Shown here: one piece after another, positions 12,849 through 17,445 of the stretch
Layout: each line of letters opens with the position of its first letter
How positions within the stretch are numbered: position 1 is the first letter of the stretch
Origin: Methanoregula sp.
GTDB taxonomy: Archaea; Halobacteriota; Methanomicrobia; Methanomicrobiales; Methanospirillaceae
Length of the DNA stretch: 64,000 nt
NCBI GenBank assembly: GCA_039698055.1
Contig: JBDKTL010000007.1
Coordinates: 32,001 to 96,000 of the forward strand
Direction of reading: 5' to 3'
Made by a program: the position numbers and the translations under genes
The notes under the pieces: generated by a model
What the model was told of the DNA's origin: nothing
The model's input: the letters and a program-made list of their open reading frames with translations, nothing else
Database searches by the model: none

Positions 12849-15071
12849 TCAGGTATCCTCCGTATTACTATAAGAGTATGGGTCGGGAAACAAAACCTCT
12901 GTAGGTATATTGTTATTATCAGGAGCGCGAGGACCTTTTATCGCATCCGGCTCACCAAGCACCGTAACCGGTACCCGGCCGATAACATCCTGGAACGATT
13001 CAATATGGAAATAATCAGACAGGATCATATCCTTAAAAGCGGTAGCCGGAAGCGCCCTGGCAAATTTCCAGTTCTCATGAGACGGGAGGGAAAGGGCAGA
13101 TCCAATCTCCGTCCGGGAAAGCGCGGGGATTTTTTGTATTGCGTTTGCAACGATCTGTAACCCATCCTCCTTTCCCGCTCTCATCACGAATATCCGAAAA
13201 TCATCATACCGGACCTGAACATGTCCGCCGATAATTTTCCTGATAAGACTGCCAAGGACCCGGTTGAACGGGCTTCCGTAAAAAGAGTACACGACAACCA
13301 TCGTACCCCGCCTGCCATGCTCCTGACAAACATAGATTCCCCGTTCGCCGACACCCTCAGGGTAAGGTGCAAGCGCGTGTTTGAGCGATAGTTTCTCCTC
13401 CTTTCCCAGCGGCAACAACGTATCCTGCCGGGCAATTATCCTCTGGACTGCATTGCATACCAAGGAGGAATACCCTTGTTCCCCGCCCCCGGACCAGAAA
13501 ACACGGGATTTTTCGCTCGCGTGGGGAACAACAACAACCAGGTTATGCTGTTCGTCACACTTCACCATTGACCAGCTCTGGCCGCCAAGAGAGAATTCCC
13601 CGGAATCCGGGCTGTTGACAAACCGTGCATCCAGTTTTCCTACAAAATCCCCATCTGGAGTGACGGCACGGTACTCTCCGCTGCCGCTGATGACCGAGTA
13701 CAGATCTTTCCAGTTCGAACGCCCGAACACCCGCTCTGCCTCGATTCCCGGCATGACCATGTCCCCATCAGGAGCGAGATACCCTTCAACAACAAGATGG
13801 GATACGATCTCTTCACAACCAGCTAAAGGCAGTGCAGAAAAAGCCGGATGGGCTCGCAGTTCGCGGACAAGTCTTTTCCTGCTGATGCGGGAGGCATGGA
13901 AGAGAAGGAGGAACAATTGCTGAAGAAAAACATTGTAGGGTTTTAAGAGCGGCTGGAGGTGTTCAACTTCTTTATTGATGGCACACTCCATGATCGCACA
14001 GCTGCAGAGAAGGTCACCGGGGTTTGCAAGAATCCACGCAACAAACGCAGACCCTCCTCTCCGTCCGGTTCGTCCCATCCGCTGGAGAAATGATGATACC
14101 GATCCCGGCGGGCCAATTTGTACGACCACGTCAAGATCCCCGATATCGATTCCCAGTTCAAGAGTACTTGTACAGATAATACAGGCACCATCGTCACGGT
14201 GGAATGCATCTTCAGCAGTTTTCCGGAGGGCTGTCGAGAGCGACGAATGATGGATATGCAGGTTCAAAATACGCCCGCACGCCGATTTCATGATCCGTTC
14301 AGCGATACTGCGGCTGTTGACAAACACCAGCGCCTTTCTGCCGGCAACGATGCGGACAAGTGCATCAACCTGTTTTTCTTCATCTTCCTCGACAACGAAG
14401 AGGAATTCATTTTTTTTCGGCGGCGACACCATCTCGACAACCTTGTTGTCCCGCCGCATATCAGAGAGCCATTTCAGGATCTCTACCGGATTTCCGGCAG
14501 TCGCTGAAAGACCGATGCGCTGGATTGGATACAGGGTGATACGGTCAAGACGGTCGAGAAGGATTTTCAGGTGCACTCCCCGCTCTGATTCAACAAAGGC
14601 ATGGAGCTCATCAATAATGACGTACCTTATGTTGTGGAGGTCCGGGCAAATTTCTTTTTCCTGAAGGAGGACTTCAAGTGATTCCGGCGTGATCATCAGA
14701 ATATGCGGCGGTTCCCCATCTTTCCATCGCCGATCACCTTTGGGAACATCCCCATGCCATTTTTGTAAAGTGACGCCTGTCGGGACGCAGAATGCAGAAA
14801 AACGTTCTTCCTGATCGTTGATAAGCGCCTTTAACGGGGAGATATACAGGCAGGTGATCCCGGTCCTGCCATGTTTTAAAATATCATCCATAACAGGGAT
14901 CAGCGCCGCTTCAGATTTCCCACCGGCAGTCGGCGCGAGGACAAGTACATCGCTCCCTTCGGTTATCGCTTTATACGATCGCTCCTGGACTTCCCGCAGT
15001 TCATTCCACCCCAGCCGCTGGTTCAGCACATGCTGGAGAGATTCATGCAGGATGGAAAATACTGGTGCCAC
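12849..15071 (-). CDS. Lhr-like DEAD/DEAH box helicase
   Basis: APTAGGKSE, TPESL, DELH, SAT, TSTLELGID, QRMGRTGR. Confidence 0.9.
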   Translation of the reverse strand: MAPVFSILHESLQHVLNQRLGWNELREVQERSYKAITEGSDVLVLAPTAGGKSEAALIPVMDDILKHGRTGITCLYISPLKALINDQEERFSAFCVPTGVTLQKWHGDVPKGDRRWKDGEPPHILMITPESLEVLLQEKEICPDLHNIRYVIIDELHAFVESERGVHLKILLDRLDRITLYPIQRIGLSATAGNPVEILKWLSDMRRDNKVVEMVSPPKKNEFLFVVEEDEEKQVDALVRIVAGRKALVFVNSRSIAERIMKSACGRILNLHIHHSSLSTALRKTAEDAFHRDDGACIICTSTLELGIDIGDLDVVVQIGPPGSVSSFLQRMGRTGRRGGSAFVAWILANPGDLLCSCAIMECAINKEVEHLQPLLKPYNVFLQQLFLLLFHASRISRKRLVRELRAHPAFSALPLAGCEEIVSHLVVEGYLAPDGDMVMPGIEAERVFGRSNWKDLYSVISGSGEYRAVTPDGDFVGKLDARFVNSPDSGEFSLGGQSWSMVKCDEQHNLVVVVPHASEKSRVFWSGGGEQGYSSLVCNAVQRIIARQDTLLPLGKEEKLSLKHALAPYPEGVGERGIYVCQEHGRRGTMVVVYSFYGSPFNRVLGSLIRKIIGGHVQVRYDDFRIFVMRAGKEDGLQIVANAIQKIPALSRTEIGSALSLPSHENWKFARALPATAFKDMILSDYFHIESFQDVIGRVPVTVLGEPDAIKGPRAPDNNNIPTEVLFPDPYSYSNTEDT

Positions 15072-15163
15072 GTTCGTACAAGAGCATTATCCCGGACGTC
15101 TTATGGTCTTTTGGGCGGGGGTGATTTTTTTAATACACCGCTTTGAAGTAAATTTGCAAACAG

Positions 15164-15171
15164 TTATATAC
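15164..15171 (+). promoter_or_regulatory. Putative TATA box of the symporter operon
   Basis: TTATATAC preceded by a purine-rich BRE-like GCAAACAG, about 20 nt upstream of the structured leader. Confidence 0.55.
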
Positions 15172-15191
15172 AAATATCCGCATAGAAAAAA

Positions 15192-15330
15192 TCTGGTAAA
15201 CAAATGACAGCACCATGGGTTTGTAGTACCGGTTTTTTCCTTAACCCATGCTTCGCATTCACTTTTAGATAGGGAACCAGGTATTTTCCCGGTTCCCTGT
15301 GCATTGTCGTGATTAACGTTTACCAGAGGT
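15192..15330 (+). ncRNA. Candidate structured cis-regulatory 5' leader RNA
   Basis: Nested stems TCTGGTAAAC/GTTTACCAGA, ATGACA-GCAC/GTGC-at-TGTCGT, CATGGGTT/AACCCATG and AGGGAACC/GGTTCCCT; the closing stem overlaps the GAGGT SD-like site. Confidence 0.55.
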
Positions 15331-15336
15331 TTTTGT

Positions 15337-15462
15337 ATGCTTCTTGGAATTCCTGACGTATGGATATTGATCGGCTATGGCCTTGCCATCGGCTTTACGT
15401 TCGCGTGTATTGTATACGGTTACCTGCACTGGAATGAGGGGGGTAAACCGGATGGCAGTTAA
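15337..15462 (+). CDS. Symporter small accessory protein (41 aa, one TM)
   Basis: Below the ORF-track cutoff: MLLGIPDVWILIGYGLAIGFTFACIVYGYLHWNEGGKPDGS; SD GAGGT; overlaps the symporter start. Confidence 0.85.
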   Translation: MLLGIPDVWILIGYGLAIGFTFACIVYGYLHWNEGGKPDGS

Positions 15463-17023
15463 TCCGCTTACGATGGCGATTCTGGTGCTCATCTATCTTG
15501 CAGCAACCCTCATAATCGGGTACCTTGGATATAAAAAGACAAAAAATTCCGAAGACTATCTTGTCGCAGGCAGGTCCAGTCATCCGGTGATTATCGCACT
15601 CTCTTATGGCGCGACGTTCATCTCTACGTCCGCAATTATCGGTTTTGGTGGCCAGGCTGCGAATCTTGGGATGGGGCTTATCTGGCTCACGGTTTTAAAC
15701 ATCGGTGTCGGCATCCTTCTCGCGTTCGTCATGTTCGGGAAAAAAACACGGGAGATTGGCCAGCGGGTTAAAGCGGTTACATTCCCTGACCTGATGTGCA
15801 AAATCTACAAATCCCCGCTCCTGCAGTACATCAGCGGATTTGTCATCGTTATTTCGATGCCACTCTATACGGCCGCTATTCTCATCGGAGGGGCGAGGTT
15901 CATAGAACCGACACTCAACATTTCGTATACCGTATCGCTCATTTTATTTGCTTTAATAACTGCCGTCTATGTTATTTTCGGCGGCATTATCGCTGTAATG
16001 TATAATGATGCTTTCCAGGGCACCATCATGCTGATCGGGATGAGCCTGCTGCTTGTGCTGACCTATGTTGCTGTTGGCGGGATCTCTGCAGGCAACCTGG
16101 CTCTTACAAATATGGCTAATCTTGTCCCAAAAGCGCTTGCGGACCAGGGGATGACCGGCTGGACAACTATGCCCTCATTTGGATCGCCAATATGGCTTAC
16201 GCTTATTACAACGATTGTCCTGGGGGTTGGTATCGGCGTTCTCGCGCAACCGCAGCTGGTTGTGCGGTTCATGACGGCAAAGGATAACAAATCACTGAAC
16301 AGGGCGATTCTGGTTGGTGGCCCGTTTATCCTGATGATGACCGGTGTCGCATTCACGGTAGGCGCCCTGACAAACGTATATTTCTTCCAGACGTCCGGCA
16401 CGATAGCTCTTACTGCCGCTGGTGGAAATGTCGATGCTATCATGCCGCTTTTCATTAACCAGGCGATGCCGGACATTTTCGTAATCATCTTTATGCTCAC
16501 CCTGCTCTCAGCAGCCATGTCTACCCTGAGTGCGCTGTACCATGCGATGGGTACAGCGATAACCTGCGATCTCTGGGGCAGAGGGCGAGCGTGTGCGCTC
16601 TCCCTCCGGCATAACCAGTACGGAATAATCGTTATGATGGTCATAAGCACGCTCCTTGCATTCGCACTGCCCGTAAGCATCATCGCACGGGCAACCGCGA
16701 TGTTTATGGGACTTTGTGCGGCGGCGTTCCTCCCGGCATTTGCCATCGGGGTGTACGCGAAAGTACCGTCAACGAAGGCCGCACTGTGCAGCATGATTTC
16801 CGGTGCAGTGATCTGGTTTTTCTGGACGGCATTTATCCACACAGCAGAGGCGAAATCGCTTGGCATCTGCCAGTTCATCTTCAATAAGCCATCGCTCCTG
16901 CCACTTCCCTGGTCAGTTGTCGATCCGATTGTTATCGCCCTGCCAATATCCATGGCGATTATGATCGTCTTACAATGGAACTCTTCCCGCCAGCAGTCCC
17001 TCCCCACGGGGGTAACCGGATAA
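15452..17023 (+). CDS. Sodium:solute symporter family protein
   Basis: DYLVAGR, ATFISTSAIIG, about 13 TMs, AAMSTLS; ATG at 15452. Confidence 0.93.
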   Translation: MAVNPLTMAILVLIYLAATLIIGYLGYKKTKNSEDYLVAGRSSHPVIIALSYGATFISTSAIIGFGGQAANLGMGLIWLTVLNIGVGILLAFVMFGKKTREIGQRVKAVTFPDLMCKIYKSPLLQYISGFVIVISMPLYTAAILIGGARFIEPTLNISYTVSLILFALITAVYVIFGGIIAVMYNDAFQGTIMLIGMSLLLVLTYVAVGGISAGNLALTNMANLVPKALADQGMTGWTTMPSFGSPIWLTLITTIVLGVGIGVLAQPQLVVRFMTAKDNKSLNRAILVGGPFILMMTGVAFTVGALTNVYFFQTSGTIALTAAGGNVDAIMPLFINQAMPDIFVIIFMLTLLSAAMSTLSALYHAMGTAITCDLWGRGRACALSLRHNQYGIIVMMVISTLLAFALPVSIIARATAMFMGLCAAAFLPAFAIGVYAKVPSTKAALCSMISGAVIWFFWTAFIHTAEAKSLGICQFIFNKPSLLPLPWSVVDPIVIALPISMAIMIVLQWNSSRQQSLPTGVTG

Positions 17024-17112: not shown

Positions 17113-17445
17113 ATGGAACTCGCGCAGAAAAAATGTTCTACGTATAAGCCCGGATCCCCACCCCTCACCAGAAAGGATACTATTGAACTTTTAAAGGAAG
17201 TTCCCGGATGGTCAATGGATAACGGGCATCTCACACGGACATTCACCTATGACGACAGTGGAAAATCCATTGAATTCGTTAATGATGTTCTCACGCTGTC
17301 CACGCAGGAAGGACACATTCCGGATATCGCTATGAAAGAAGGGCGGTTTGTCACCGTGTCATTTTACTCGTATCCAGCGGGAGGGCTCACCCTGAATGAT
17401 TTTATTATGGCCGCAAAAATTAATGAACGAGATATTACTAAATAA
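17113..17445 (+). CDS. Pterin-4-alpha-carbinolamine dehydratase-like protein
   Basis: EGHIPDI (HHP-like) and GGLTLNDFIMAAKI. Confidence 0.8.
   Translation: MELAQKKCSTYKPGSPPLTRKDTIELLKEVPGWSMDNGHLTRTFTYDDSGKSIEFVNDVLTLSTQEGHIPDIAMKEGRFVTVSFYSYPAGGLTLNDFIMAAKINERDITK

Follow-up and report, generated by a model that had tools for sequence, protein, structure and literature searches.

The DNA considered here is a 64,000-nucleotide (nt) stretch of a Methanoregula sp. genome (contig JBDKTL010000007.1, positions 32,001 to 96,000), hereafter the window, and the element in question is the leader of a sodium:solute symporter operon within it. This leader contains a short upstream reading frame that ends in a run of phenylalanine (Phe) codons, carries three covarying helices, and stands at a constant position before transporter genes. 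We consider it likely that the leader works as a ribosome-mediated attenuator, controlling the uptake operon according to how much charged tRNA-Phe is available. The sensing of charged tRNA-Phe by ribosome stalling is proposed because of bacterial precedent; we infer likewise that the frame is translated, that Phe is the signal, that starvation turns expression on, and that a further step couples stalling to expression. The frame lies in the window as follows.

15204-15272, plus strand: upstream reading frame (leader peptide), 22 codons followed by TAG (15270-15272), with five Phe codons
15252-15269, plus strand: terminal cluster of Phe codons, TTC at 15252, TTC at 15258 and TTT at 15264, followed by the arginine (Arg) codon AGA at 15267-15269

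The peptide encoded in the window ends F-A-F-T-F-R-stop, and what an earlier interpretation of this DNA (the sequence-only reading) had described as a 20-nt single strand between helices P3 and P4 is the 3' end of this frame. The same 3' end, ~CUUUUUCUUCUUUAGAUAGGG, is the best conserved part of the element across the order Methanomicrobiales. The frame traverses helices P2 and P3, the last bases of its TAG belong to P4, and an upstream ATG, a few bases 3' of the 5' strand of P1, occurs in every family. An intact ATG...TAG frame was found in 111 of 118 leaders, from 26 genus groups and six families, a count that depends on a pattern that we made ourselves for the conserved stop site. All 111 intact frames encode two to six Phe within the last eight residues, then Arg or serine (Ser), and then stop. 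Frame length is 20-32 codons with a mode of 22, four of the 111 being longer at the start choice used. Among the seven leaders that lack the frame, two stop one codon early at TGA, four belong to decayed or divergent loci, and one has lost the stop.

Phe accounts for 423 of 888 tail codons in frame (47.6%), compared to 69 of 777 and 81 of 777 in the other two frames; genome-wide, 4.1% of codons in long frames encode Phe. The length from ATG to TAG is a multiple of three (60, 63, 66 or 69 nt) in 57 of 59 leaders, in an alignment that is blind to frame, and the spacer from TAG to the main ATG is spread over residues 0, 1 and 2 modulo 3 (11, 29 and 19 of the 59 leaders, respectively). This spacer measures 56-76 nt (mode 64) in 102 of 103 leaders. 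These counts bear on the suggestion that the frame is a T-rich by-product of a protein- or DNA-level element, in which the U-rich tract or the hairpins would be bound by protein or the inverted repeats would be operators. Consistent with such an element, both strands of the leader fold well, and in 82 of 110 leaders the +1 frame, too, runs open for at least 60 nt ahead of the stop site, although this control is weak because T-rich sequence is poor in stops and frame 0 is open by selection. A by-product would not be expected to keep its length in multiples of three, to conserve both an ATG and an in-frame TAG, to use synonymous Arg codons, or to show G.U pairs on the plus strand only, and the +2 frame is closed in 108 of 110 leaders. 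We regard this explanation as exceedingly improbable.

Peptides of different families are unrelated at their N-terminal ends and share only the Phe tail, a pattern that points to a regulatory leader peptide and not to a functional protein. Conservation of the frame would also be accounted for if it encoded a micro-protein with a function of its own, such as another hydrophobic transporter subunit, and the RNA fold served only mRNA stability or translational coupling; the operon already encodes one 41-amino-acid accessory protein. This micro-protein would, however, be conserved only in its Phe tail, as the first 12-25 residues of frames that run to 20-32 codons have no counterpart in other families and are often charged. 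No stretch is long enough to span a membrane, and the same leader also precedes the gene of an ABC-type binding protein. The chance that the frame encodes such a protein is therefore very small.

The codon before the stop is AGA in 75, AGG in 18, AGT in 15, CGA in two and CGT in one of the 111 frames. AGA makes up 6.3% of Arg codons in the long frames of the genome, yet it is the penultimate codon in most leaders, and this preference may reflect slow decoding or a constraint at the RNA level. A rare Arg codon, together with a conserved C-terminal tail, a penultimate residue that is always Arg or Ser and an unchanging UAG that abuts a stable hairpin, would also suit an arrest peptide of the kind of TnaC, which responds to tryptophan; its ...FFF-x-F-R/S chain would sense free Phe or another ligand within the ribosome tunnel and, at high ligand levels, halt translation at the stop codon or close to it. 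Such a peptide would give substrate induction, and substrate-induced transporter operons are common. The positions between the Phe hold A, S, L, I, T, G, N, H, Y or V, and there are anywhere from two to six Phe, which fits the counting of codons better than an arrest motif of set sequence, and the UAG and the GGG that follows it are also constrained by P4. An arrest peptide is accordingly improbable in our view, and the reading as an attenuator that responds to charged tRNA-Phe is the one carried forward below.

The fold of the leader comprises four helices, of which P1, P3 and P4 covary across relatives. Their strands in the window, with P2 given in its conserved version, are as follows.

15195-15201, plus strand: P1 5' strand with the conserved core GGUAAAC; over 59 leaders, its 7 pairs have 98.3% of cells paired
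15318-15324, plus strand: P1 3' strand, core GUUUACC, pairing with 15195-15201
15209-15213, plus strand: P2 5' strand, conserved version, within codons 2-4 of the upstream frame
15309-15313, plus strand: P2 3' strand, conserved version, pairing with 15209-15213
15214-15221, plus strand: P3 5' strand, within the reading frame, 6 modelled pairs, 92.6% of cells paired
15243-15250, plus strand: P3 3' strand, within the reading frame
15271-15298, plus strand: P4 hairpin, beginning inside the stop codon of the upstream frame
15299-15308, plus strand: joining strand after P4, consensus ~GUGUAAUG, conserved across the order in alignments

Read directly from the window, P1 pairs 15192-15201 with 15318-15327 (10 base pairs, bp), P3 pairs 15214-15221 with 15243-15250, and P4 pairs 15271-15278 with 15291-15298. 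These strands and those of the original P2, the TATA-like box, the GAGGT and the ATG at 15337 all lie where the sequence-only reading had placed them. The minimum free energy fold of 15185-15345 (plus strand) yields P1 to P4 at -49.9 kcal/mol, compared to an average of -33.9 +/- 3.7 kcal/mol for 200 dinucleotide shuffles (z -4.31, one shuffle as good), so that the leader folds better than its shuffles. The minus strand also folds well (z -5.80), as any set of inverted repeats would; the G.U pairs of the plus strand, which are C.A on the minus strand, indicate that it is the plus-strand RNA, not the DNA, that is selected. The possibility of a dispersed repeat is ruled out, as the leader is single-copy in its own 2.26-Mb genome, where the ten other matches span only 14-23 nt at E-values of at least 0.385. 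An Rfam scan of 14900-15600 with E-values up to 10 gave as its sole match a vertebrate long non-coding RNA model at 11.8 bits (gathering threshold 50, E 5.7), a chance hit, so that the leader belongs to no Rfam family.

At the DNA level, the leader could be recognised in 15 of 36 genomes of its genus, with 69-82% identity. A covariance model trained on 15 leaders matched 57 of the 108 genus genomes (30 of the 50 of high quality) and, at E <= 1, 74 of the 151 genomes drawn from the order; all six families gave matches, those in family f3 being only weak and partial. The genomes are samples of their groups, and many are incomplete. In 59 aligned leaders, 95.0% of the cells of the P1/P3/P4 structure were paired and 11 pairs showed double changes, in an alignment that was fitted to the covariance model and so favours the structure. 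None of 500 shuffles matched the score of this structure, and slid controls were 23-63% paired. All six modelled pairs of P3 vary on both sides, and the fourth pair of P4 alternates between A-U and G-C. The conservation and covariation of orthologous leaders that a structured element implies were thus found.

Across the order, each leader's segment was paired with its own partner and with the partners of other genera, in 24 genus groups. The own partner was the better one in 23 of 24 groups for P4, in 15 of 24 for P1 (6 lost) and in 16 for the P3 region (7 lost). The P1 pair GGUAAAC/GUUUACC becomes GGUAUUCAG/CUGAAUACC, CUUUGG/CCAAAG and similar combinations elsewhere, with the outer GGUA/UACC kept. 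In every case, the main Shine-Dalgarno site is preceded by a helix that stops 0-4 nt short of it; this helix is P1 in families f1, f4 and f6, and a local hairpin in f5, f3 and part of f2.

Several details of the structure as first drawn were revised by these comparisons. The 10 perfect pairs claimed for P1 are present in the window, but the third pair is a C.A mismatch in most relatives, which reduces P1 to its 7-bp core. P2 is likewise present in the window as drawn but weak in relatives, where it is 74.5% paired, mostly by invariant or G.U pairs, and is reached by 4 of 500 shuffles. The alternative 5-bp P2 listed above is 81.8% paired with 22 double-change cells and was reached by none of 500 shuffles; the window itself has one mismatch in this version (G15210.A15312). 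The competing fold that had been proposed between 15227-15238 and 15271-15283 did not survive, as it is 63.9% paired, is reached by 309 of 500 shuffles, and scores 63.6% when slid by one column.

These data also bear on a metabolite-binding riboswitch, in which the three-way junction would bind a small molecule, P1 would be the expression platform, and the frame would be incidental or secondary. A three-way junction with covarying helices in the 5' leader of transporter genes is what such a switch would present, the strand after P4 (~GUGUAAUG) is conserved order-wide and is accounted for by neither coding nor any helix tested, and the lack of an Rfam match would make it a new class. However, the most conserved unpaired stretch is explained by codons (frame, multiples of three, synonymous Arg codons), the region from P1 to the Phe tract varies freely between families in sequence and in hairpin number, unlike an aptamer core, and the proposed switch helix is without covariation. 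Direct ligand binding is no longer needed to explain the conservation of the leader, and we give a riboswitch only a slim chance. Of the riboswitch-like leader first described, what stands is a conserved, structured, cis-acting 5' element between a TATA-like box and the ribosome-binding site of a transporter operon; the riboswitch reading itself is unsupported, since codons explain the strongest conservation outside the helices in a leader that holds the frame in nearly all cases.

Two further features of the fold were observed. In family f5, the strand after P4 leads into the local hairpin, whose 5' arm resembles the P1 5' strand. The internal loop that separates P1 from P2 (alignment columns 20-27 and 177-179, window 15201-15207 and 15316-15318) has C-AAU-GA opposite GA-G in the majority of Methanoregula leaders and, by eye, resembles a kink-turn there. 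The window reads AACG on the 3' side of this loop, and both the window and the divergent group misfit a kink-turn.

The leader lies between a promoter and a two-gene operon, with the following features.

15164-15171, plus strand: TATA-like promoter box TTATATAC, sequence read directly
15326-15330, plus strand: Shine-Dalgarno-like GAGGU of the accessory gene, 1 nt 3' of P1
15337-15462, plus strand: gene of a 41-amino-acid symporter small accessory protein (NF045580, 50.6 bits against a cut-off of 35)
15452-17023, plus strand: gene of the sodium:solute symporter (SSF; PF00474, 173 bits)

The assignment of the leader to a 41-amino-acid accessory gene and a sodium:solute symporter gene was confirmed by these matches; the start of the symporter gene overlaps the 3' end of the accessory gene, and a Lhr-like helicase gene lies upstream of the leader on the opposite strand. 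GAGGTTT is invariant in 15 leaders, and a Shine-Dalgarno-like site is present across all families. An A/T-rich, TATA-like 8-mer starts 30-62 nt upstream of the ATG of the upstream frame in 81 of 103 leaders, and 35-44 nt upstream of it in 72 of 103. With the usual archaeal spacing from TATA box to transcription start, we infer that transcription would begin at about 15195, at the GG of the P1 5' strand and 7-13 nt before the upstream ATG. A start at this position would explain why the outer three pairs of P1, as first drawn, are not conserved. The core of the P1 5' strand is probably both the 5' end of the mRNA and a GG-rich site 7-9 nt before the upstream ATG.

Among the matches within the genus, the symporter gene follows the leader in 55 of 59 and the accessory gene in 57 of 59. 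Order-wide, both genes follow in 21 of 22 matches, and the accessory gene is found at 36 of 41 when weak and partial matches are included. In two unrelated lineages, the leader precedes the gene of a Liv-type substrate-binding protein of an ABC importer (Peripla_BP_6, 160 and 186 bits). Its occurrence before both symporter and Liv-type binding-protein genes indicates that the element goes with genes for solute or amino-acid uptake. A pterin-4a-carbinolamine dehydratase-like gene lies 3' of the symporter in 29 of 74 loci, all of them in Methanoregula, Methanoregulaceae or Methanomicrobiales, and the bacterial family of this dehydratase partners phenylalanine hydroxylase. The Phe leader, the Liv-type binding proteins and the dehydratase-like gene together hint at Phe or an aromatic precursor as the substrate.

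In the window, the dehydratase-like gene is located at 17113-17445 on the plus strand, 3' of the symporter gene (PF01329; NCBIfam scores below cut-off). The dehydratase-like gene persists at loci where the symporter has decayed. In four Methanoregula loci (L066, L067, L073 and L074), the leader is recognisable and the symporter is truncated or deleted; the leader of L073 is cut after P4 and fused to the dehydratase-like gene, and the Phe-Arg-stop core is degraded in the other three. Two genomes of family f5 (G191 and G205, loci L105 and L106) carry a second, paralogous set of leader, accessory gene and symporter gene with its own Phe-rich frame, the paralogous symporter sharing about 64% protein identity with that of the window.

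The arrangement of frame and helices suggests how an attenuator of this kind could work. P1 pairs what is probably the start of the transcript with the segment immediately ahead of the main Shine-Dalgarno site, P3 falls inside the frame, and P4 sets in at the stop codon. When Phe is scarce, the ribosome translating the leader would stall on the Phe codons and cover the 3' strand of P3, the U-rich tract and the foot of P4, so that the three-way junction would be broken and expression of the uptake genes would rise. When Phe is plentiful, the ribosome would finish the frame and leave at the UAG, the leader would close, and expression would fall.

Stalling could be coupled to expression by either of two routes. 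In the first, ribosomes that stall and queue on the leader would hold its 5' end back, so that P1 could not close next to the Shine-Dalgarno site. In the second, towards which we lean slightly, the U-rich Phe tract would be a termination signal that the stalled ribosome hides. In 23 of 24 groups, the Phe tract is predicted to be the most exposed part of the fold, its mean unpaired probability being 0.56 versus 0.38 for the remainder of the leader. Archaeal termination uses oligo(dT) or U-rich 3' ends, and FttA is specific for U-rich nascent RNA, according to one report (PMC13681488). In its fullest form, the second route would have the sensor codons UUU and UUC double as the U-rich signal for archaeal termination, either intrinsic or through FttA/aCPSF1, and the P1-P3-P4 fold would leave this tract as the one long unpaired stretch in the leader. 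Shortage of Phe-tRNA would halt a ribosome on the tract and thereby hide it, RNA polymerase would continue into the uptake genes, and the leader would be the first archaeal amino-acid-sensing leader-peptide attenuator. We put this fuller proposal forward tentatively and consider it doubtful as a whole.

A number of results weigh against the reading of the leader as a Phe-responsive attenuator. The frame count given above rests on a stop-site pattern of our own making. Phe codon choice is without a bias to UUU (45% in leaders, 51% in the genome), and the U tract is short in Methanoregula (UUCUUCUUU); the short tract and the lack of preference for UUU over UUC also argue against the termination route in particular. 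P1 is weak or absent in families f2 and f5, where a local hairpin takes its place. When a 30-nt ribosome footprint was held unpaired on the Phe codons, the main Shine-Dalgarno site was not opened, its mean unpaired probability being 0.36 in the free and 0.36 in the stalled state, with 15 of 103 leaders going up and 13 of 103 going down; masked folding of this kind ignores ribosome bulk, queued ribosomes and folding kinetics. There was no bacterial-type terminator hairpin with a U run and no covarying alternative helix that overlaps the frame. A switch helix between the P3 5' strand and the P4 3' strand (plus GUG) gave no signal when own and cross-genus partners were compared (13 groups against 10), and anti-Shine-Dalgarno roles for the P4 3' strand (11 groups against 10) and for the Phe tract (9 against 11) showed no covariation.

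Evidence from the genes themselves is also in part unfavourable to the Phe-responsive reading. Against the PutP, PanF and ActP models, the symporter falls far short of the cut-offs, and these models assign it no substrate. Metatranscriptome contigs (one study, three runs, with matches in run X1 only) cover only 15353-15531 and 15931-16391; these low-depth RNA contigs touch the coding genes and not the leader, where lack of cover is no evidence. At two loci, the leader and an accessory-like frame precede a CPA2 cation/proton antiporter gene with no evident tie to Phe, and these loci misfit a Phe or aromatic substrate. Simple unmasking of the Shine-Dalgarno site by a stalled ribosome, considered as a mechanism in its own right, found no support in constrained folding. 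The missing terminator and antiterminator or sequestering helices lower the case for membership in a bacterial class of attenuators, not the case that the leader works by ribosome stalling.

The two antiporter loci are L072, a second copy in genome G105, and L070 in genome G099. Their accessory-like frame scores 20.7 bits to NF045580, below the cut-off, and the stop codon of the leader frame is lost in L072.

Regulation by leader peptides is a textbook bacterial mechanism that needs ribosomes following RNA polymerase. The pheL genes are short, carry one or more runs of Phe codons and control transcription attenuation of pheA, as described in PMC3082878. The leader studied here resembles the gamma-proteobacterial pheL/pheA system (Phe_leader) in placing ahead of the genes a small reading frame with a Phe-codon run at its end, the translation of which would set downstream expression. 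It differs from pheL in its archaeal host, in having uptake transporters rather than biosynthesis genes downstream, and in its lack of a terminator hairpin with a U run, of any antiterminator pair that we could find and of a match to an Rfam leader model. Also unlike pheL, helices enclose the archaeal leader frame (P1, P3) and start at its stop (P4).

In the tna operon, one gene of which encodes a permease, TnaC acts with Rho; there, as in leaders of the mgtL and mgtP type, a termination factor is kept from its RNA site by a ribosome held late in the leader frame. The mechanism proposed here would be similar in that a ribosome held near the end of the frame would hide an RNA site, and would be different in that the factor would be FttA/aCPSF1, or termination would be intrinsic at oligo-U, in place of Rho, and the charging of tRNA-Phe would be sensed. 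In translational attenuation of the ermC and cat type, a ribosome stalled in the leader frame remodels the RNA and frees a ribosome-binding site. Unlike in those systems, the main Shine-Dalgarno site of this leader lies outside any helix, and masked folding did not open it consistently. The leader shares with riboswitch aptamers built on a three-way junction a closing P1 by the ribosome-binding site, two hairpins, covariation and its place in the 5' leader, and differs from them in that the junction strand is coding, the core is variable between families, and Rfam holds no match.

The literature search, which subscription journals and supplements may extend, gave no report of the motif or of an archaeal amino-acid leader-peptide attenuator. 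Two archaeal ribosome-profiling papers, in their available text, mention small frames in 5'-untranslated regions only as possible upstream frames (PMC11456600, PMC10117724). Bacteria have elements of this kind; what is new is the occurrence in another domain, the set of target genes and the architecture, with no terminator and with a frame that is enclosed by P1 and ends in P4.

If termination at the U tract proved to be the coupling step, the leader would be direct functional evidence that Archaea couple transcription to translation for regulation. An order-wide leader with Phe codons is a natural test case, open to mutation, for the interplay of the archaeal ribosome, RNA folding and termination, and a regulatory part for the engineering of methanogens. 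It also offers an initial clue, pointing to Phe or an aromatic precursor, to what is carried by a widespread and uncharacterised family of symporters with a small accessory protein. The case further warns that conserved junction strands of candidate riboswitches need to be checked for reading frames.

The distribution of the leader was also assessed outside the order. At orthologous operons in 30 archaeal loci (Methanomassiliicoccales, Methanomethylophilaceae, Thermoplasmata and one unclassified Methanobacteriota metagenome-assembled genome), none had an upstream frame with at least three Phe in the last eight residues. Among four Firmicutes loci, one had a 10-codon frame 207 nt upstream, probably by chance. 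An 18-nt pattern spanning the junction of Phe, Arg, stop and P4, searched in 401 genomes of the phylum, was matched in 20 of 67 genomes within the order and in 2 of 333 outside it, compared to 4 for the reversed control; the pattern is narrow and misses many true leaders, so that a genome without a match is one in which the leader was not found, not one in which it is absent. The two outside matches, and one second site within the genus, lacked both an ATG frame and an accessory gene.

In Methanomassiliicoccales, Methanomethylophilaceae, Thermoplasmata and one Firmicute, an inverted repeat GTGCTAA-(N)-TTAGCAC lies about 60-130 nt before the accessory gene, near the promoter. From its sequence, this GTGCTAA...TTAGCAC palindrome is probably the operator of a transcription factor, and the accessory/symporter operon of these groups would be under another kind of control, probably protein-based.

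The genome of the window was also scanned for short frames with amino-acid runs before long frames. The Phe-rich matches inspected were upstream of promoters or inside other frames, in a scan insensitive enough that its threshold (4 of the last 10 residues) missed the leader of the window itself (3 of 10). Elsewhere in this genome, outside the window (C30:65293-65334, plus strand), a 13-codon frame with nine threonine codons overlaps by 4 nt the start of a 481-amino-acid frame.

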